DNA of 64,000 bases, taken from positions 8,711 through 72,710 of the forward strand of contig DATJPV010000028.1 in assembly GCA_035506195.1 (NCBI GenBank). The letters run 5' to 3'. Below the pieces are notes generated by a model that ran no database searches, was not told where the DNA came from, and was given only the letters and a program-made list of their open reading frames with translations. How positions within the stretch are numbered: position 1 is the stretch's first letter; every line of letters starts with the position of its first letter. Origin of the DNA: Patescibacteria group bacterium (GTDB taxonomy: Bacteria > Omnitrophota > Gorgyraeia > Gygaellales > Profunditerraquicolaceae). Position numbers and translations under genes: made by a program. This document shows positions 27,663-59,665 of the stretch, one piece after another.

Positions 27663-27840
27663 AAAAAAATCCCCGCCTGTGCCGTTGGGGATGATGGTGC
27701 TGAACCGTTTTGGTTTCAGGTGGGTGCTGTCCCTTTGGCGCCTAAGCGCCAACGGAGTCAAAGCTCCCGTGAAATTAGTGTTGGTTCACTAATCATCAAA
27801 TTCCCCAACAAACACTGCAGGGATATGTAAGACTTGCAGC
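27663..27840 (-). ncRNA. Candidate structured small RNA (~180 nt) with its own promoter; 6S-RNA-like architecture suggested but unproven
   Basis: On the minus strand, TTGACT-17nt-TATGCT sits immediately after the pheT stop. The region ends in AUCCCC...GGGGAU + U7 just before the rarA RBS. The 5' segments (CCCUGC, UUGGGGA, UGAUG) can pair with the 3' segments (GCGGGG, UCCCCAA, CAUCA) to form a long interrupted closing helix. Internal hairpins include TTGGCGC-CTAA-GCGCCAA and TTAGTG-ttggtt-CACTAA. Confidence 0.25.
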
Positions 27841-37257: not shown

Positions 37258-37266
37258 TTTTTCAAG

Positions 37267-37340
37267 TGGGCCCAAGAGGAGTCGGACCTCTGACCTTTGC
37301 GATGTCAACGCAACGCTCTAACCAACTGAGCTATGAGCCC
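37267..37340 (-). tRNA. tRNA-Val (anticodon GAC)
   Basis: Reverse complement GGGCTCATAGCTCAGTTGGTTAGAGCG-TTGCG-TTGACAT-CGCAA...TTCGACTCC...TGGGCCCA is a canonical cloverleaf. Confidence 0.85.
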
Positions 37341-37347
37341 ATAGCTA

Positions 37348-37470
37348 TTACTTATCGGAGCCATCCCCGAAGGGGATGAGCCTCCCGCGTTACTTATCTG
37401 AGCCACCCCCGTAGGGGATGAGCCCCCCCATCTTACTTATCTGAGCCACCCCCGTAGGGGGTGAGCCCCT
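37348..37470 (-). repeat. Three tandem ~42-bp repeats, each carrying a GC-rich 7-bp hairpin, in the tRNA-Leu / tRNA-Val spacer
   Basis: Units start at 37348, 37390 and 37433. Transcribed strand reads GGCTCA(T)CCCC-(TTCG|TAC)-GGGG(A/G)TGGCTC(C/A)GATAAGTAA. Confidence 0.6.
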
Positions 37471-37480
37471 TAAAGCGCAG

Positions 37481-37564
37481 TGCCGGGGGAGGGAATTGAA
37501 CCCACAAGACCTTACGGTCGCGGGATTTTAAGTCCCGTGCGTTTGCCAGTTTCGCCACCCCGGC
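37481..37564 (-). tRNA. tRNA-Leu (anticodon TAA), long variable arm
   Basis: Reverse complement GCCGGGGTGGCGAAACTGGCAAACGC-ACGGGA-CTTAAAA-TCCCG-(variable arm)-...TTCAATTCC...CCCCGGCA. 84 nt type-II tRNA. Confidence 0.8.
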
Positions 37565-37609
37565 GATTATCCTCTGTCCGCAGGCCCCTCTAGGCCACGA
37601 CAGGCACAC

Positions 37610-37684
37610 TGGAGGCGACGAGCGGAATCGAACCGCTGAATAGCTGTTTTGCAGACAGCTGCCTTGCCGCTTGGCTACGTCGCC
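37610..37684 (-). tRNA. tRNA-Cys (anticodon GCA), CCA encoded
   Basis: Reverse complement GGCGACGTAGCCAAGCGGCAAGGCA-GCTGT-CTGCAAA-ACAGC-...GGTTCGATTCCGCT-CGTCGCC-T-CCA. Confidence 0.85.
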
Positions 37685-41290: not shown

Positions 41291-42094
41291 TTATTGTCCC
41301 GCGGTTGTTGCTTCTGTACCATTAGGCTGGACCGCAGGTAATCCTAACATTTCTCTTACGAGGGCTTCGTATTTTTGCGCACCGATAGAATCCTTATCAT
41401 ATAACGCTACGGGCTTGCCAAAACTTGGAGCTTCGGTTAAGCGCACGCTGCGCGGAATAACTGTTTGGTAGACCTTGTCCTTAAAATAATTCCTTACTTC
41501 GTGAATCACCTCTTTCGTTAAATTTGTTCGAAAATCCGCCATGGTCAATAAAACTCCTTCGATGCCAAGCGAAGGATTGAGATTATCTTTCACAAGTTTA
41601 ATCGTATTAATAAGTTGTGTGACTCCTTCAAGGGCGTAATATTCGCATTGAACCGGCACAAGCACTGAATCTGAAGCACATAACGCGTTAATGGTCAATA
41701 GCCCCAGTGATGGCGGAGAGTCATTAAGAATGAAGTCGAAATTTTCCTTTTCCTTCTGCAACGCCTTTTTAAGCCGATATTCTCTCCCTAGTGCGCTGAC
41801 TAATTCTACTTCCGCACCAGTAAGATCGAGATTCGATGGTGCAACAAAAAAATTGTTAATTGCGGTGGTTTGGATAATTTCCTTGATGTCCAGCTCTTCG
41901 AGGATTACGTGGTAGGTACTCTGTTTTACATTGTGCCGGTTGATGCCGGCGCCGCTGGTGGCATTAGCTTGAGGATCTAAATCAACCAGCAAAACTTTTT
42001 TTCCGGCCAAGGCAAGATATGCAGCGAGATTAACTGCCGTCGTAGTTTTACCGGTGCCGCCTTTCTGATTGCAGATGGCAACAATTTTGCCCAT
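41291..42094 (-). CDS. parA: Chromosome partitioning ATPase ParA/Soj
   Basis: KGGTGKTTTAVNLAA deviant Walker A, DLDPQANAT. Confidence 0.9.
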   Translation of the reverse strand: MGKIVAICNQKGGTGKTTTAVNLAAYLALAGKKVLLVDLDPQANATSGAGINRHNVKQSTYHVILEELDIKEIIQTTAINNFFVAPSNLDLTGAEVELVSALGREYRLKKALQKEKENFDFILNDSPPSLGLLTINALCASDSVLVPVQCEYYALEGVTQLINTIKLVKDNLNPSLGIEGVLLTMADFRTNLTKEVIHEVRNYFKDKVYQTVIPRSVRLTEAPSFGKPVALYDKDSIGAQKYEALVREMLGLPAVQPNGTEATTAGQ

Positions 42095-42213: not shown

Positions 42214-42414
42214 TCAAGATTTTTCTTGTTGCGCAATTACGGTAACGCGTATCTTGGCAGGTTTAGCGCCGGGCATCCCAAACAGGCCTTTTTTCTCCTC
42301 GGAAAGCACTTCAATTTTTACTTTTTCCCGGGGAAGCTTCAATTCCTTCAGGGCTTTTTTTATCGCTTCTTCTATGGTTCTGCCCTCTACTTCTACACCT
42401 AATTTATCACTCAT
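42214..42414 (-). CDS. Jag_N-domain small protein (N-terminal domain of KhpB/Jag only)
   Basis: 66 aa, MSDKLGVEVEGRTIEEAIKKALKELKLPREKVKIEVL matches the Jag N-terminal domain; immediately downstream of yidC as in the conserved yidC-jag pair. Confidence 0.55.
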   Translation of the reverse strand: MSDKLGVEVEGRTIEEAIKKALKELKLPREKVKIEVLSEEKKGLFGMPGAKPAKIRVTVIAQQEKS

Positions 42415-43943
42415 TTGAGCCTGTTTATTTTAAATTGATTAAAAAGCATAATGGAACTATTGACCAGCCAGTACAATACCAAACCTGCGGGCATATTATA
42501 AAATATAAACAAAAACATCACCGGCATTATTATTGTCATTATTTTTTGTTGCTCATTTGCAGTTGCGCTTACGGCAGTCATTGATAGTTTTTGTTGTATA
42601 AACATAATCGCGGTCATTAATATTGGTAAAAGATTGATCTCTTTAATTGGACCAATTGCGGAGAAAGAAAATAAACGATCTGGCTGCGAAAGATCATTAA
42701 TCCACAGAAAATGTGCGCCTTTAAGTGATATCGACCGTATCATGGCTTGATATAGTGCAAAAAACACAGGTATTTGCAAAATTAAAGGTAAACAACCGCC
42801 CAATGGATTGACTTTATGGATCCGATATAAATCCATCATCTCTTTATTTAATTTTTGCGGATTATCCTTGTAAATTTTTCGCAGTTCTTCAATTTTTGGT
42901 TGCAATACCTGCATTTGTTTCATTGAGCGCATTTGTTGTAAAGAAAGAGGATAGAGCAAAAGAGAGATGCAGATGCTAAAAAGTATGATTGCCCAACCCC
43001 AATTATGCGCTATTCCATAAAGCCAATCTAAAATTTGAATTAATATGTGAGAAATAAAATCAAAGGTTCCGAAATATAAAACTGCAGTATACTCTGGATT
43101 GATTTGATTGATTAATTTTAATTCCTGTGGCCCTAAATAGATACGAAATTCTTGCACACTAGTTTTTCCAGTCTGTATCGTAATCGCTTTTGCGCTTAGG
43201 CCTATTTCCGATTCTTGTGCATTGATTTTACGTACAAAAGCAGAATAACCCGGAGATTTTGGTTGAATAATATTACAAAAATAATGATCTCGCAAACCTA
43301 AAAAGCGGATATTCTCAAAAATAGCATCTTTTTTAGCGCCGTTATGTATTGTTTTATCCGAAGTAACTACAGTAATATCTTTAAACCGGGTCTCAACTTG
43401 GTCTCCAGAAAAGTCTAAAATCCCAAGAATAATACCGGGATTAAACTCAATCTCCTTAGTGGATAAGTTTTGTACTTCTATATATAAATCTATGGTATAA
43501 TTTGAGTTATGAAAAATAAAACGTTTAATAACCTGTTTATCCTTATCTCGATGGACAAACAGCGCAGTATCGGAAGAGCTATTTTGTCGCTTAAAAAGCA
43601 AGTTTTTGTCAGTCAAGAGAAATCCTGATTTTAACGAAAAGTCGTAATTCTGGTATTTTTTAAAAACTGTATGTTTAATGATTGCAAGCTGTTCTATAAA
43701 TACAGGCTCACCTTTATCTTGCGGAAAAATAAAGGTAGTGGCGGGAGTTTCCGGTGCTTCCTCCGGAACAGCGGCAGGCAGAGATGTCGCCGGCGAAGGC
43801 GCGATCGACGGCTGGGAGGGTTTTGGTAGGGATACGGACCTTAAGGCTGTATTCTCCGGAGGCCGAAGCCGCGAAACAAGCGCCGACCACCCGAATATTA
43901 CTAAAAAGGACATTGCTATTGCGATAATTGTACGTTTTTCCAT
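42411..43943 (-). CDS. yidC: Membrane protein insertase YidC
   Basis: N-terminal TM, large periplasmic domain, C-terminal 5-TM core with ...QQ.KM..LQP... and PLGGCLP motifs. Confidence 0.9.
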   Translation of the reverse strand: MEKRTIIAIAMSFLVIFGWSALVSRLRPPENTALRSVSLPKPSQPSIAPSPATSLPAAVPEEAPETPATTFIFPQDKGEPVFIEQLAIIKHTVFKKYQNYDFSLKSGFLLTDKNLLFKRQNSSSDTALFVHRDKDKQVIKRFIFHNSNYTIDLYIEVQNLSTKEIEFNPGIILGILDFSGDQVETRFKDITVVTSDKTIHNGAKKDAIFENIRFLGLRDHYFCNIIQPKSPGYSAFVRKINAQESEIGLSAKAITIQTGKTSVQEFRIYLGPQELKLINQINPEYTAVLYFGTFDFISHILIQILDWLYGIAHNWGWAIILFSICISLLLYPLSLQQMRSMKQMQVLQPKIEELRKIYKDNPQKLNKEMMDLYRIHKVNPLGGCLPLILQIPVFFALYQAMIRSISLKGAHFLWINDLSQPDRLFSFSAIGPIKEINLLPILMTAIMFIQQKLSMTAVSATANEQQKIMTIIMPVMFLFIFYNMPAGLVLYWLVNSSIMLFNQFKINRLK

Positions 43944-43946
43944 GGT

Positions 43947-44162
43947 TTACTCTAGAGGGTCATATCCGGAGTGCGAAGAGAAGGGATGGCATTTACACAG
44001 GCGCCTCACCGCTTTTGCCGCGCCGACAACGACCCCGTATTTTTCAATTGCCTGCTTGGCATACTCCGAGCAGCTCGGAAAGAAGCGGCAGCAGGGTGGC
44101 AACGCAACCCGAAGGCATTGCTGATAGAAAGCGATAGCACTAAGACAAGTGCGCGAAAGCAT
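43947..44162 (-). CDS. yidD: Membrane protein insertion efficiency factor YidD
   Basis: YQ..LS...PP.CRF.PSCSEYA..A....G highly conserved YidD signature; start overlaps the rpmH stop (TAATG). Confidence 0.85.
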   Translation of the reverse strand: MLSRTCLSAIAFYQQCLRVALPPCCRFFPSCSEYAKQAIEKYGVVVGAAKAVRRLCKCHPFSSHSGYDPLE

Positions 44163-44299
44163 TATATGGAGATTCTTTTTCGGCCCTGTTTCCGTCGACG
44201 GGAAAGAACCGCCCTTCCCGACTTGGTGCGCATCTTAGCGCGAAAACCGTGGCGCCGTTTTCCGACCAGATTCGAGGGGGTTTTTAAGTTTTTCTTCAT
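44162..44299 (-). CDS. rpmH: 50S ribosomal protein L34 (below the ORF-track size cutoff)
   Basis: Manual translation of the minus strand gives [45 protein letters not shown], matching the bL34 HGFR..M.T..GR.VL.RRR..GRKRL consensus. Confidence 0.85.
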
Positions 44300-44597
44300 T
44301 GTGTTGTCTCCGTTTTAAAAATTTTCATCATTATAACACAAGCCCGCCCTAAGTCAACAGCCTCGGGCTTAATTTGAAGGACGATTGTAACACACAAATT
44401 ACTGCCGGTCAAGATAAACTATATTTTTATTTTCTAGAGGCAAGATATTATATTTTTATTGACGCCTCGCAGAAAAGCAGTATAATAATGCGCGCTTAAC
44501 TTTGTTGCTTGCAGATATCTTTTTCTCTGTTATAATATTTTCCACAGGTTTATTCAAGTTGTGCATAAACTGTGGATTGTGTGCAAAGGAACTAGTT
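44300..44597. promoter_or_regulatory. Candidate oriC / dnaA control region: AT-rich, DnaA-box-like 9-mers, dnaA promoters
   Basis: TTTTCCACA (44538-44546) and CAATCCACA (rc of 44571-44579) resemble TTATCCACA. TTGACG-16-TATAAT (44459-44486) and a second TATAAT at 44531. Gene strand switches exactly here. Confidence 0.5.
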
Positions 44598-45938
44598 GTG
44601 GCCCGCACCGACCTTCACCACGCATGGGATAAGGCTAAAACACACCTCAAGGAACACCTCGGAGAGACCGTGTTTGAAACCTGGATCCTGCCTTTAAAGC
44701 CAGTGCTGCAGAGCGAGGGGGCATTAAGCCTGGCTGCTCCAGATGCCTTCTTTCGAGACTGGGTAGAAAAACACTACAAGGCAGATATAGGCGAGGCCCT
44801 GCGTGCCTATACTAAAGAAGAGGTAGTCGTATCCTTAAGCATTGCTCCGGCCGGTGGCCAGCCGGCAAGCAAGCCGCACGCCGCTACTCCGGGGCGCGCC
44901 GCCGAACTGCCGGATAGCTTTAGTTTAAACCCCCGCTATACCTTTGAAAATTTTGTGGTTGGCCCCTCGAACCGGCACGCCCATGCGTATTCCCTGGCCG
45001 TGGCCGAATCCCCCGCCAAGACGTATAATCCTTTGTTTATCTATGGCGGCGTGGGCCTGGGGAAAACCCACCTTATGCAGGCTATCTGCCATTACATCAG
45101 AAACAAGAGCCCCACTCATGTCAAGATCTGCTATATGACCTCGGAGAAGTTCACTAACGAATTAATCGACGGCATTCAACATCACTCCACATCGGCTTTC
45201 CGCCAGAAATACCGCAGCGTCGACGTGCTTGTTATAGACGACATCCATTTTATCGCCGGCAAAGAATCCACCCAGGAAGAGTTTTTCCATACCTTCAACG
45301 CGCTGTTCGACGCGCACAAACAAATCATCATTTCTTCCGACCGGCCGCCGAAAGAAATCGCTAACCTCCAAGACCGCCTGGTGTCGCGTTTCAGTTGGGG
45401 CTTAACCACCGATATTCAGCCGCCTGACCTAGAAACCCGGGTCGCCATTTTGAAAAAAAAGATCGAGCGGGAACCGGTGGCCGTACCGGATGAAGTTATA
45501 TTTTTTATCGCTCAGCTGATAAAAACGAACATCCGGGAGCTGGAGGGGGCGTTGATACGTATTATCGCTTATTCTCTACTGGAGGAAAAACCCATTACTT
45601 TGGAACTGGCCAAGGGGGTTTTAAAGGACCTTCTGAAAGAGCCGCAAAAATTGATTACGGTTGATTTTATACAGCGGTGTGTGGCGGAAGAATTTGGCCT
45701 TACGCTGCATGACTTAAAAACAAAACGCCGCAACAAGACCGTAGTCTTTCCTCGGCAAATTGCTATGTATTTGAGCCGAGAAATGACGGATTTGTCCTTA
45801 CCGGAAATCGGGGAACATTTTGGGGGTAAGGACCATACAACGGTTTTGCATTCATACAACAAGATTAAAGAGGAATTAGCCAAAAACGGGGGATTAAAAA
45901 CCAGGGTCGAACGAGTTGTAAATATTATTAAACAGTGA
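44598..45938 (+). CDS. dnaA: Chromosomal replication initiator protein DnaA
   Basis: AAA+ Walker A GGVGLGKTHL, sensor motifs, C-terminal DNA-binding helix-turn-helix. Start proposed at in-frame GTG 44598 (AAGGA 8 nt upstream); the long ORF begins at 44502. Confidence 0.9.
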   Translation: MARTDLHHAWDKAKTHLKEHLGETVFETWILPLKPVLQSEGALSLAAPDAFFRDWVEKHYKADIGEALRAYTKEEVVVSLSIAPAGGQPASKPHAATPGRAAELPDSFSLNPRYTFENFVVGPSNRHAHAYSLAVAESPAKTYNPLFIYGGVGLGKTHLMQAICHYIRNKSPTHVKICYMTSEKFTNELIDGIQHHSTSAFRQKYRSVDVLVIDDIHFIAGKESTQEEFFHTFNALFDAHKQIIISSDRPPKEIANLQDRLVSRFSWGLTTDIQPPDLETRVAILKKKIEREPVAVPDEVIFFIAQLIKTNIRELEGALIRIIAYSLLEEKPITLELAKGVLKDLLKEPQKLITVDFIQRCVAEEFGLTLHDLKTKRRNKTVVFPRQIAMYLSREMTDLSLPEIGEHFGGKDHTTVLHSYNKIKEELAKNGGLKTRVERVVNIIKQ

Positions 45939-55114: not shown

Positions 55115-58100
55115 ATGTCACGGAAGATTTATAGATTTTTATCTTTTCTATTATGCCTTTCCTTGATCTTTCAGCAATCCGGCTTTGCGCAAATAGCCGG
55201 CCAGCTCAACGCCTCTGCCTGCCTGCTTAACCTAAGCAACATTATTGTTGCCGACAAATTCCGCCCCCTGCATTTAAGGGCCCTTTCCTACGACAGCGCG
55301 CATAATAACTTCCGGCTTCTTCTGGATAAAGGGGACGTCAAGGAGCTTAAGGATGACCTCGTGAAGGATTCCACGCAGAAGCTCATGGAATACTTTTTTG
55401 TCGGCATTACCTTGCCTAACGAAGCATTTTGGGTCAACTTGCGGCCGGATTCCGAAAACGACATTATCGATGACGAGCTGGCAAAGACCGACCTGGGTAA
55501 AGTTTTGCTTGAAGCAGACCTGCAGCTTAAAAAGGATACGGCGCGGCTGACCTCTCCCGAGAATCCTCAGGGCAAGTTGTATTGGGATAAGCTTTATCAG
55601 AAGGCCGAAGAACTGCTGGGCCAGTCGGATACGAATATACCCGCTTTAGTCAGGCCGTGGATCGTACCCGGAGAAGTTATTATCCGCGAAAGCCAGAGCA
55701 GCGCCTATGTGTACAAAGCCACGCTTAAGGTTATGCTCGAAGAAGATTATCTCCAAGGTACAGCCGCGTATGCTTTCGATGACCCCCGGCTGAAAGCCCT
55801 AAACGAGTATTCCTCTCAGCTGCTTCGAGAACTGATACTCCCGCAACTAACCCGGGAGATCAACGCCTCCAAAAAATATGCCGCACTAAGACAGGCCTAT
55901 TACTCTCTGATTCTGGCTCAGTGGTTTAAATCCCGCTTCCAGCTGGTTAACCAAAAGAATCTCAACCAGGGTCTTGTCTCCAAAGTCCCCTGGTCGAAGG
56001 CCGCTTACTTTAGAGCCTACCAGAAATCTTTTCAAGACGGAGAATACAAAATCCAGGATACCATTTACACCGCCAGCGGTCCGGGCATCCGAAGCTATAT
56101 CAGCGGAGGGATGAATTTAGCGCTACCCGCAAGCAGCGCAGTCTTTACTTTGCAAAACAATAGGCCGATTACGGCAAGTGCGACAACGCTGGCCGTTGGC
56201 TATGACGGATCAATAATGGTCTCTTTGGCCGGTAAACCAGCTCAATCGGTCAGTTCGTCCATCGACGATGCTCAAGCTTCGTTTCCGTTCATGCATGAGC
56301 CTGACACGGCGGTATATCGGGCTTTGCAGCAAGCCCAGGGCAGATTTACCCATACATACGCTAATGGAAAGACGCAGGATTTTGAATTGACTCTCAGGGA
56401 AGCCCCTGGCCGCTATAATACTCAAGTTGTATTGCGCCTGCCGGGTTCGCAAGAAGAGGCGGGTTATCTTGAGCTGACTACCTCCGAAGACAATGATACG
56501 ATAGAAGCGGGTTGGCTCTGGAGAAACAAAAATTACCAAGGCCCGTCGATTTCCGTGCCTCTTTTAAGCAGGCTCCGCGAGGCACTCCCGGTCGGCAAAG
56601 CTCTGCATACCACTATTGGGGAAACGATAAGCCTAAGAGAATTAATGACTGGGCAAGATCTACATCATAAGGATCAAGCAGGCTTACAAAAATCAAAAAT
56701 AGAATACCTTAAGGATACAAACATCGGAGAGAAAATTCAGGCTGCTGGCTGGCAGATAGACAGGGTTTTTTATACGGATGCCGAAATAGGCGAGGCACAC
56801 GCTGAACCGGTAAGAGAGGCCTTGACGCAAGATGTGCCTAGAGACCTTAGGCCAGGAGAGCAGGGCTTGCCGCAAGGCTGGCTGCATGTATGGCTTAAGC
56901 CGGTACAGGACAGGACAACGCAACCCATGGATTACGGCATTGATGATGACGGTTCGCAAGGGGCCTCTTCGTCATTAACCATGATAGAGCAGCATATTGA
57001 TGTCGATGCGATCGCCCGGCAATTAGGGATTTACAGGGACAATAGAGAAGCAATACTCAACGCGTTTAACGATGTTGCTCGCAGTGAACACGCGGTGCGC
57101 GGCTATGCCACCATTATTCATAACGAACAATTACTGGCTAGGGTTGTGGGAGGATTGAATCAATTCTCTTCACCGAAAATGAGCTCATATCTTTGGCATG
57201 TCTCATTGGTGCTCTCGGAACTTCGGGACGAAGGGCTGGCAGAATCCATAGTCGATGGCTTATTCCAGCACCCGGCATACCTGGTCGACCAAATGTTCGC
57301 TTCCGGGGCCAGCACGGGCTATGCCTTTTCTTTTTTCTCGGCATTTTTACAAAAGTTCCTCCCGGCCTTATACGACAGACATATCCCGGTAACTCCTGCT
57401 TTAGTGCAAAGCGTCTTTCGTTTAAGCGATATCGATGCGGTTGTGTATGCCAAAGCGTTTGAATACGAGCATCAATATCCCGGCGAGATCGACCAGATTA
57501 TTAAGGGCATCGTAGCAGCTTCAGATGTGGGCACCCTCCAGGTGCGCCAGGCCATCGCCGACCTTCTTTTTGTTATCGATGACAGCTTCTTCAAAACGAC
57601 CGTTGTCCACCCCGAGTATAATTATCAAGAAGATGAGCCGATAGGGATCTTCCGGGATAGAAAACTATTCGAGAGCCAATTTTTGGACACGCTACCGTTG
57701 CCCGTAGAAAGCCCGTCGACGCCGCGTCAACCCTTGGCCCAGATAACATCGATGCAAGAATTTCAGGATTTGTTTACGCCGGAACGCGGCCCCGGTTTTC
57801 GGGTCGAGGGGGAAAGGGTGATATTTTTAGGCGATCGTGCCGTAAGAAATTTTATAGCACGACATCAAGTTGATATCGTCCCCCCGGGAGAATACGCCGG
57901 CCTCGCCAGCCGGTGGACTACCGATAGCTTATTAGCGGCTGCGCAGGATTTCTATACGGGCGCAACAGCAGTATTGCTTTCAGAAAGCGGGAAGCTATGG
58001 TTTTTCAAAGAATGCAGCGACAATGCTACCGCACAAGAGGAGCAGAGAAAAAGTCCCTTTAATGGCACGGAAGGCTTCAAGGCTTTTGTGGTCGGCAGGT

Positions 58101-59665
58101 ATTACATAGCAACATTTGCGCTTGATTATCGGCCTCCTACCATCAAGCCAGAGCGGATGCGGCCGGCCCCCTACAATCGCATCGCGAAAACAGCACAAGA
58201 GGCAATAGATGCCGCTAGGCAACGCTCTCTGGGATCGGTAACAAATGATTTTGCCTCCGTCCATAACCTTGCCGACACGCAACTTTCTAATATGCTCGTG
58301 AAGTACACATGGAACGGCACTCTCATTGACGTAAAGGTGACGGATCAAATTGTGAGTGCCGAGATCAAGAAGAAATACGACCTAAGGCATTCGGGGCTTA
58401 GCTTTCCCGGCCAGGCGTCCTCGACAATAGAAGACTTTTTTCATCAAGGCGCGCTCGGCGTTGGCGCAGCTACGCAGGCCCCCAAGGTAGTATTTAGCCA
58501 ACAATTATCGGAAGACCAGGTAGGGCTCCTGAAAAACGGCGGCGAGGTTCGGCGTACGCCCGAAGGCGGCCTCGCGATCATCGAGACGACCCAAGAAGAG
58601 AGGGCGCGCCCCACCTATAAACCGTGGCCTATTTTTGGTACCCATTTCGACGAAATCGACACCATTTTTAAGGGGCTTTTCCAGGAGTCTTTGGTACAAA
58701 AGATAATCAACTTGGCTCAGTCGCATCCGGAAAATCCGGTATATATTCTAGACTGGGGCGCAGGCAACGGATTGGCCGCAATAGAACTAGCCGAAAAACT
58801 AAAGAATTATAATGTGCGGATAATCGCCTTCGGTAATACCTATGTGCCGGAGTTTATGCCCAACACAATACCTCCTAACGTATTATTCCTTATCGGCGAA
58901 GCAGGCGATTTAGTCCGGGATTTAAAGGGCATGCTTCCCGCAGGGACTAAGCTAGACGCAATCATTAGCTATGCCGGCATACACGGCTTGTTAACGGAAG
59001 CAGACCGGGGGCGGGGGTTCCTGACCCGCGTTGCGGAGTTGGACACCCTACTGTCGAGCAATGGATTTATGGCGCTTCAGGTTGCGTTTCCGCACCGCAT
59101 ACAACTGCTCAAGGAGCTTACCCCAGCGCTGGAGGCACAGACATCTTTACAATTGAAGCTTCGAGAAGACCAGGGGCCAGAAAAAACAAACAACTTCGTG
59201 TTGCTAGAGAAGAAAAACCAAGATCTCCGCGCGGGCAGCCCTTCGGCATCTTCGCCGACAGGTATTGTTCCGCAAACACAGGGAGAGGTTGGCGGTATTG
59301 ATTTTCGCAGCCTCCCCATACCCGCGCAATCGCCAACCTTCACTTTTACTCTTCGACAGCCGGTTCAGCTTATCCCCTCCGCTAAGCTCGGTGAATATTG
59401 GCAGGATATTCAAAAGTCCCTGCAGGACAATGCGATCCCTTCCAGTGACCGCATCCTAAACTACCTTCGGTCCTGTTGTGATAAAGAAGACGCAGCGCAG
59501 GAAATCGAAAAAATAGTAGCTTGCATTGCAGAGATCTTGCGCCTGGAAGAGGATCAGGTGGTCTACACCGACCCTGAAATGAAACAGATATTGGCCGTCC
59601 TTGAATCACAGATCTCGCTTCCTGAACTTCGTGCCGCCCTTTTCCGCCTGGACGCCACCCCCTAA
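55115..59665 (+). CDS. Giant (1516 aa) signal-peptide-bearing protein of unknown function with a C-terminal class I SAM-methyltransferase-like domain
   Basis: N-terminal MSRKIYRFLSFLLCLSLIFQQSGFAQ signal peptide. Around aa ~1205-1390 (nt ~58740-59290): motif I VYILDWGAGNGLAAIELA, then RIIAFG, LFLIGEAGD, LDAIISYAGIH, LLSSNGFMALQV (Rossmann MTase order). The remaining ~1200 aa have no recognisable domains, low repetitiveness, and look globular. Confidence 0.6.
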   Translation: MSRKIYRFLSFLLCLSLIFQQSGFAQIAGQLNASACLLNLSNIIVADKFRPLHLRALSYDSAHNNFRLLLDKGDVKELKDDLVKDSTQKLMEYFFVGITLPNEAFWVNLRPDSENDIIDDELAKTDLGKVLLEADLQLKKDTARLTSPENPQGKLYWDKLYQKAEELLGQSDTNIPALVRPWIVPGEVIIRESQSSAYVYKATLKVMLEEDYLQGTAAYAFDDPRLKALNEYSSQLLRELILPQLTREINASKKYAALRQAYYSLILAQWFKSRFQLVNQKNLNQGLVSKVPWSKAAYFRAYQKSFQDGEYKIQDTIYTASGPGIRSYISGGMNLALPASSAVFTLQNNRPITASATTLAVGYDGSIMVSLAGKPAQSVSSSIDDAQASFPFMHEPDTAVYRALQQAQGRFTHTYANGKTQDFELTLREAPGRYNTQVVLRLPGSQEEAGYLELTTSEDNDTIEAGWLWRNKNYQGPSISVPLLSRLREALPVGKALHTTIGETISLRELMTGQDLHHKDQAGLQKSKIEYLKDTNIGEKIQAAGWQIDRVFYTDAEIGEAHAEPVREALTQDVPRDLRPGEQGLPQGWLHVWLKPVQDRTTQPMDYGIDDDGSQGASSSLTMIEQHIDVDAIARQLGIYRDNREAILNAFNDVARSEHAVRGYATIIHNEQLLARVVGGLNQFSSPKMSSYLWHVSLVLSELRDEGLAESIVDGLFQHPAYLVDQMFASGASTGYAFSFFSAFLQKFLPALYDRHIPVTPALVQSVFRLSDIDAVVYAKAFEYEHQYPGEIDQIIKGIVAASDVGTLQVRQAIADLLFVIDDSFFKTTVVHPEYNYQEDEPIGIFRDRKLFESQFLDTLPLPVESPSTPRQPLAQITSMQEFQDLFTPERGPGFRVEGERVIFLGDRAVRNFIARHQVDIVPPGEYAGLASRWTTDSLLAAAQDFYTGATAVLLSESGKLWFFKECSDNATAQEEQRKSPFNGTEGFKAFVVGRYYIATFALDYRPPTIKPERMRPAPYNRIAKTAQEAIDAARQRSLGSVTNDFASVHNLADTQLSNMLVKYTWNGTLIDVKVTDQIVSAEIKKKYDLRHSGLSFPGQASSTIEDFFHQGALGVGAATQAPKVVFSQQLSEDQVGLLKNGGEVRRTPEGGLAIIETTQEERARPTYKPWPIFGTHFDEIDTIFKGLFQESLVQKIINLAQSHPENPVYILDWGAGNGLAAIELAEKLKNYNVRIIAFGNTYVPEFMPNTIPPNVLFLIGEAGDLVRDLKGMLPAGTKLDAIISYAGIHGLLTEADRGRGFLTRVAELDTLLSSNGFMALQVAFPHRIQLLKELTPALEAQTSLQLKLREDQGPEKTNNFVLLEKKNQDLRAGSPSASSPTGIVPQTQGEVGGIDFRSLPIPAQSPTFTFTLRQPVQLIPSAKLGEYWQDIQKSLQDNAIPSSDRILNYLRSCCDKEDAAQEIEKIVACIAEILRLEEDQVVYTDPEMKQILAVLESQISLPELRAALFRLDATP

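Follow-up and report, generated by a model that had tools for sequence, protein, structure and literature searches.

In Aquifex aeolicus and other Aquificaceae, the protein HARP (Aq_880) is the sole RNase P, and these bacteria have neither rnpA nor rnpB. In Thermus, rpmH lies wholly inside rnpA, in another reading frame. Halorhodospira, Thioalkalivibrio, Methylacidiphilum, and Thermodesulfatator carry a HARP-family gene and have kept both rnpA and rnpB (PMC12153264, PMC9945441); in these dual-enzyme bacteria the RNA ligase Rnl3 is usually found beside HARP. The latest genome-mining survey counts 178 bacterial HARP instances among more than 1 million genomes, mostly in extremophiles and usually beside Rnl3, and its table lists no Omnitrophota. 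A further point of reference is PbHARP of “Planctomycetes bacterium GWF2_40_8” (PDB 7E8K/7E8O), which is the best solved-structure match of the Omnitrophota HARPs described below.

Gene order at the rpmH operon

The window, by which we mean the whole analyzed stretch of 64,000 nucleotides, lies within ENA contig ERZ27256505:k141_3979636 (length, 123,638 bp; subtracting 9179 from the record position gives the window position). Its cumulative GC-skew minimum lies at dnaA/rpmH, and the window therefore covers the replication-origin (oriC) region. On the minus strand, we observe the order rpmH, yidD, yidC, a Jag_N-only gene, parA, and parB, with dnaA, dnaN, dciA, gyrB, and gyrA running divergently on the plus strand. 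The features around the junction are as follows.

44598..45938, plus strand: dnaA, divergent from rpmH (Pfam; cumulative GC-skew minimum here)
44330..44357, minus strand: sigma-70-like promoter, TTGACT, 16-nt spacer, TG-TATAAT (consensus match only, 11/12)
44162..44299, minus strand: rpmH, ribosomal protein L34, 45 aa (PF00468 Ribosomal_L34, E=3.9e-15)
44160..44164, minus strand: TAATG stop/start overlap of rpmH onto yidD, at the normal place of rnpA (direct sequence reading)
43947..44162, minus strand: yidD, membrane protein insertion efficiency factor, 71 aa (PF01809, E=4.3e-23)
42411..43943, minus strand: yidC, membrane insertase, 510 aa (PF14849 and PF02096)
42214..42414, minus strand: truncated jag/khpB, 66 aa, with the Jag_N domain only and neither KH nor R3H (Pfam)

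The end of rpmH reads ...ATA TAA TG, with the TAA stop at 44164-44162 and the A at 44162 serving as the first base of the yidD ATG. A sequence-only reading of this DNA had reported that a 45-aa rpmH ends in TAATG as the start of yidD and that neither space nor an ORF is left for rnpA between them. The first statement is borne out by the sequence and the Pfam matches, and the second is confirmed by the ORF list and the six-frame HMM search. No RnpA ORF (about 115 aa) is located between rpmH and yidD or overlaps them, the other minus-strand ORFs there measuring only 44 and 38 aa, and the six-frame search with the RnpA profile returned no match. A Thermus-like overlapping rnpA was ruled out, as the rpmH strand has no long alternative-frame ORF. 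The candidate promoter, a consensus match only, sits about 30 nt upstream of rpmH, and we detected no terminator-like sites between rpmH and yidD or yidC. In this family-level clade, rnpA has been cleanly deleted from the ancestral rpmH-rnpA-yidD-yidC operon, and the TAATG overlap translationally couples rpmH to yidD.

The base composition of the operon is uneven. The GC content of yidC is 0.36 (GC3, 0.33) versus 0.51 for the window, and about 300 nt into the gene it falls from roughly 0.51 to roughly 0.33; that of jagN and parA (41291-42094) is also low, at 0.43 to 0.44, and that of yidD and rpmH is 0.51 to 0.54. In relatives, yidC is likewise the lowest-GC gene or among the lowest, with a smaller contrast (0.36 to 0.41 versus 0.42). 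A lower-GC relative may have supplied yidC by recombination, which would account for its low GC, or the gene may be under a compositional constraint of its own.

Conservation of the junction

The canonical site is without rnpA in 7 assemblies representing 6 lineages. An independent Logan assembly of another run (L002) shows the identical rpmH-yidD arrangement, and five further lineages share the rnpA-less junction (L003, L088, L089, L090, and L295), originating from the 1.19-Mb ENA contig ERZ25039512 contig_50884, the 647-kb IMG contig Ga0265297_10000029, GCA_028716245.1, GCA_028719045.1, and a 169-kb ENA contig. The 1-nt overlap of rpmH and yidD recurs in L003, L090, and L295, and spacers of 4 to 14 nt are seen in L088 and L089. 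All five have a synteny of roughly 20 genes in common, and their identity to the window amounts to 70 to 76% for DnaA, 75 to 86% for GyrB, and 51 to 56% for YidC. Since the same junction occurs in related lineages, we regard it as a clade trait and not an assembly artifact; in this clade of roughly family rank, the deletion of rnpA is fixed.

The abrupt GC shift about 300 nt into yidC (0.36 for the gene versus 0.51 for the window) might speak for an artifact of assembly or binning, for example a chimeric contig. We consider this highly improbable, and the agreement of independent assemblies effectively refutes it: the arrangement is identical in the Logan assembly of another run and recurs in five other lineages, among whose assemblies are long-read and NCBI ones, and yidC belongs to the lowest-GC genes of the region in relatives too.

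A Jag_N-only gene of 62 to 67 aa is present in L003, L088, L089, L090, and L295. At this locus the whole clade is thus without both of the RNA-binding products that a classical rpmH operon encodes, namely RnpA and the KH-R3H portion of Jag. Inteins (Intein_splicing, LAGLIDADG) in gyrA and gyrB, and LAGLIDADG/GIY-YIG homing-endonuclease-like ORFs among the tRNA genes, were seen in relatives (L295/L296 1-6337; L003 16549-17223); gyrA and gyrB of the window are intein-free. YidC homologues and synteny place the window in Omnitrophota. NCBI labels the TPA MAG (YidC HTY45216.1) “Patescibacteria group bacterium,” which is probably a misclassification.

Search for RNase P components, and tRNA genes, in the source contig

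Besides the operon, the following features of the window and its flank were of interest.

27666-27826, minus strand: 6S RNA (Rfam RF00013, 64 bits)
37266..37684, minus strand: tandem cluster of tRNA-Cys, tRNA-Leu, and tRNA-Val, with spacers of 45 nt and 139 nt (Rfam)
55115-59665, plus strand: ORF of 1516 aa without a match in Pfam; also conserved in the Logan assembly
L006 12205-12657 (window-equivalent about 64083-64535, just beyond the window end): gene for a Mut7-C (PF01927) PIN-like nuclease, 150 aa

The search that the sequence-only reading had proposed, for rnpA, RNase P RNA, and HARP, was run on 82 kb of the source contig and found none of the three. These 82 kb amount to about 5% of a genome of 1.5 to 2 Mb, so absence there proves little. 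For the two proteins, we combined Pfam scans of 30 ORFs (20 small, 10 larger) and Pfam tables for the loci on either side with six-frame HMM searches using profiles of RnpA, Aquifex-type HARP, and Omnitrophota-type HARP. Across about 210 kb of clade sequence overall, neither RnpA nor HARP was found by Pfam and six-frame HMM, and an RNR-motif search for RnpA gave no match. A search for RNase P RNA with Rfam at gathering thresholds (window, L003, L004, and L006) recovered only tRNAs and 6S RNA, the window holding five tRNAs and one 6S RNA and the flanks tRNAs only. Within the clade of the window, no HARP lies within 29 to 53 kb of the rnpA-less operon. A 70-aa ORF upstream of uvrD was considered as a HARP remnant and ruled out, as it has no similarity to HARP.

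We note in addition an overlap between the 6S RNA and the adjoining mgsA/rarA gene, at the 5′ end of the latter when its longest ORF call is taken. As for the 1516-aa ORF, very large proteins of unknown function are a familiar feature of Omnitrophota.

The tandem arrangement of tRNA-Cys, tRNA-Leu, and tRNA-Val with short spacers, which in the relative L089 measure 8 and 22 nt, implies that RNase P activity is still needed. At position -1 of the 8 tRNA genes on the contig, we find U in 5, C in 2, G in 1, and A in none. Substrates of the RNA enzyme typically have U at this position, which speaks for a relocated rnpA, with the classical RNase P (rnpB RNA and RnpA) kept outside the 82 kb examined and the junction being a local rearrangement. 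In the HARP-only Aquifex, A occupies position -1 in 38 of 44 tRNAs (PMC12439589). Beside HARP, A at -1 was seen in 0 of 3 cases in Omnitrophota and 0 of 3 on PbHARP-like contigs, versus 5 of 6 in the Aquificota control. Because tRNAs adjacent to HARP also go without it, the A(-1) test has no discriminating power, and we dropped this leader signature as a marker of HARP.

Relocation draws further support from rnpA annotations in three other Omnitrophota groups, discussed below, and from the many bacteria in which the two enzymes coexist, since most HARP-bearing bacteria described so far keep rnpA and rnpB too (PMC10941002). On the other hand, rnpA is almost never split from rpmH with yidD and yidC left in place; the deletion is clean, clade-wide, and sealed by translational coupling; and about 210 kb of clade sequence contain no RnpA-like ORF or RNR motif. 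We give a relocated rnpA rather limited credence and regard it as a serious rival to HARP.

HARP genes in Omnitrophota

An exhaustive profile search resolved the whole HARP family into 225 representatives at 50% identity. One of these, P0256, is OQX80046.1 of “Candidatus Omnitrophica bacterium 4484_70.1.” Used as a query, P0256 retrieves 907 proteins at E<=1e-5. Its top 120 matches, 59 to 73% identical, all have PF08745; 15 of these 120 come from named Omnitrophica/Omnitrophota MAGs, two complete genomes (CP070807.1, 1.82 Mb; CP070797.1, 1.52 Mb) among them. A metagenome scan adds at least 369 further HARP-encoding stretches. With an Aquifex HARP query, the best 120 matches are all Aquificota. 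A GTDB scan based on an Aquifex/Halorhodospira alignment used the patterns FVLDTSVFT and [ED][FV]LYEFIE, where Omnitrophota HARPs read IVLDTSIFV and [FL][LIV]YEFIEE; its lack of Omnitrophota is misleading because the patterns were too strict.

Over their whole length, Omnitrophota HARPs can be aligned with HARPs of solved structure and enzymatic activity; their identity to Aq_880 is about 40%, and P0422 matches PbHARP 7E8K with E=1.4e-48. The three catalytic Asp residues, as defined for PbHARP, are kept, and the LDT, DSKED-D, and SD-G motifs are invariant. Cleavage of pre-tRNA 5′ leaders is the predicted activity of these proteins. The phylum, with about 900 HARP protein clusters, is a large reservoir of intact, ligase-independent HARP genes, and it goes unmentioned in the literature searched, where no paper was found that joins RNase P with Omnitrophica or Omnitrophota.

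The genomic surroundings of these genes differ from those of the HARPs known before. An Rnl3 ligase occurs within 10 kb at 0 of 45 Omnitrophota-type HARP loci versus 59 of 80 in bacteria already known to have HARP, which fits a housekeeping rather than an accessory role of Omnitrophota HARP. NCBI names these proteins “RNA ligase partner protein,” though no Rnl3 is nearby. Among loci with a flank of at least 1.5 kb, 24 of 63 have a Rotamase-RcpC-secretin(TonB_C) operon, running on into T2SSE, with HARP upstream of it in divergent orientation, and in 27 of 69 the genes convergent with HARP are CNNM/CorC. Both neighborhoods were observed at Omnitrophota-type loci only (L092, L093, and L214-L256).

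The source contig itself holds a Rotamase-secretin(TonB_C fusion) pair upstream of the window (L004 18355-20903). Upstream of this Rotamase, at the slot that HARP takes in most Omnitrophota-type loci, there is no HARP; a radical-SAM gene and tRNA-Glu are found there instead, and this empty slot counts in favor of relocation of rnpA and against HARP. Among the Rotamases of HARP loci, the one most similar to that of the source contig (L238; 49% identity) is HARP-adjacent, which we count in favor of HARP, and it follows that the gene has moved or been lost in this lineage. The pair on the source contig is without RcpC and without the downstream T2SSE ATPases found in HARP-positive relatives, which suggests a rearranged or decayed Tad-like locus.

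Distribution of HARP and rnpA

Two independent lines of evidence connect HARP to the loss of rnpA, and both lie outside the clade of the window. The first comes from the portion used here of the Seymour et al. 2023 source data, in which rnpA annotation was taken as K03536, PF00825, or TIGR00188. In these tables, rnpA is annotated for genomes 58 (o__B26-G9), 104 (SKK-01, Gorgyraia), and 194 (GWA2-52-8, Omnitrophia), none of which has a PF08745 or TIGR03875 annotation there. A ribonucleoprotein enzyme therefore exists in the phylum, which speaks for relocation of rnpA and against HARP. The same tables give genome 231 (Velamenicoccia, family 4484-171, 92.7% complete) K03217 (yidC) and K08998 (yidD), without K03536 or PF00825; this genome, which in the tables has no rnpA by KO or Pfam, argues against relocation. 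Genome 227 is the HARP-bearing 4484_70.1 and is assigned to the same family, 4484-171. Among the few Omnitrophota genomes with annotation tables in this portion of the data (58, 104, 194, 227, and 231), rnpA and HARP thus appear to be in complementary distribution.

The second line consists of seven metagenome contigs (L257, L259, L262, L264, L265, L269, and L274) on which rpmH is followed, after a gap of 90 to 135 nt, by yidD-yidC-mnmE with no rnpA. On all seven, a HARP gene follows in convergent orientation about 230 nt beyond mnmE; its product shares 62% identity with the PbHARP of “Planctomycetes bacterium GWF2_40_8.”

Cross-matching of loci and accessions found no pairing of HARP with the rnpA-less junction within one Omnitrophota genome. 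Several apparent links were rejected along the way. A HARP contig and a clade contig of nearly equal length (169,187 versus 169,178 bp) proved a coincidence, the loci being non-overlapping and of different GC (0.42 versus 0.37); a link through NCBI accession blocks reflected the same submission batches and different assemblies; the HARP match P0509 was ruled out as coming from the sample of the window; and a tetranucleotide link between the clade contig L088 and the HARP contig L228 of the same metagenome (r=0.94) was too weak, as several other contigs score alike.

Which enzyme processes tRNA in this clade

The sequence-only reading had offered two explanations for the missing rnpA, relocation or a HARP-type enzyme. 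The HARP alternative has become more plausible than published distributions suggest, because HARP is abundant in Omnitrophota, complementary to rnpA in the tables at hand, and adjacent to an rnpA-less operon in another lineage; the 82 kb examined contain neither gene and no RNase P RNA, and for this organism itself the choice put forward at the outset stands. Since the phylum is a large reservoir of intact, ligase-independent HARP genes, we now hold HARP to be more probable than relocation, and we lean slightly towards the reading that a HARP-type protein-only RNase P replaces the ribonucleoprotein enzyme in this clade. The loss of rnpA would then be tolerated because the clade no longer uses a ribonucleoprotein RNase P, and the HARP replacement would be encoded elsewhere in the genome. 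For this organism in particular, we infer the possession of HARP and the lack of both rnpA and rnpB.

A third explanation would have the clade use neither RnpA nor HARP and instead an RNase P RNA with a divergent, nonhomologous, or no protein cofactor, or else an undescribed nuclease. It is compatible with the absence of RnpA and HARP from the examined sequence and with the empty canonical HARP slot, and the PIN-like Mut7-C gene just past the window end might be brought in as a candidate, though without a link to tRNA processing. We consider this explanation decidedly unlikely, as it has no positive support and two well-established solutions already occur in the phylum. The Mut7-C gene sits within a pyrimidine-biosynthesis gene cluster.

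Should rnpA-less Omnitrophota rely on HARP, the RNase P ribozyme would have given way to a protein in a large, globally distributed clade of ultra-small and mostly mesophilic bacteria, and no other bacterial group with a protein-only replacement would come near it in size. This would challenge the view of bacterial HARP as limited to a few extremophile genera and functionally tied to Rnl3 (PMC12153264). The clean rpmH-yidD junction could then be a simple marker of genomes that have lost the ribonucleoprotein enzyme; in the PbHARP-like lineage, this junction is found beside HARP. If rnpA has merely moved, the junction would be a minor synteny variant.

Comparison with described systems

The locus of the window resembles the Aquificaceae in the absence of rnpA, and the HARPs of the phylum (PF08745) have the conserved catalytic Asp. 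Unlike the Aquificaceae, Omnitrophota live in non-extreme groundwater, sediment, and wastewater and not in hyperthermal habitats, their HARP is without a nearby Rnl3 and their tRNA leaders show no A(-1) bias, and the 82-kb genome fragment of the window contains no HARP. The Thermus arrangement is similar in that no separate rnpA interval is visible and differs in that the window has no long overlapping ORF on the rpmH strand. The PbHARP-like contigs, on which rpmH-yidD-yidC-mnmE lies right beside HARP, share with the window the rnpA-less operon scar. They differ from it in belonging to another phylum, with a YidC only 31% identical to that of the window, in an rpmH-yidD spacer of 90 to 135 nt in place of an overlap, and in a HARP that adjoins the operon. 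If the main reading holds, the clade would represent a new and large group with an already known system, the bacterial protein-only RNase P that replaces the ribonucleoprotein enzyme.
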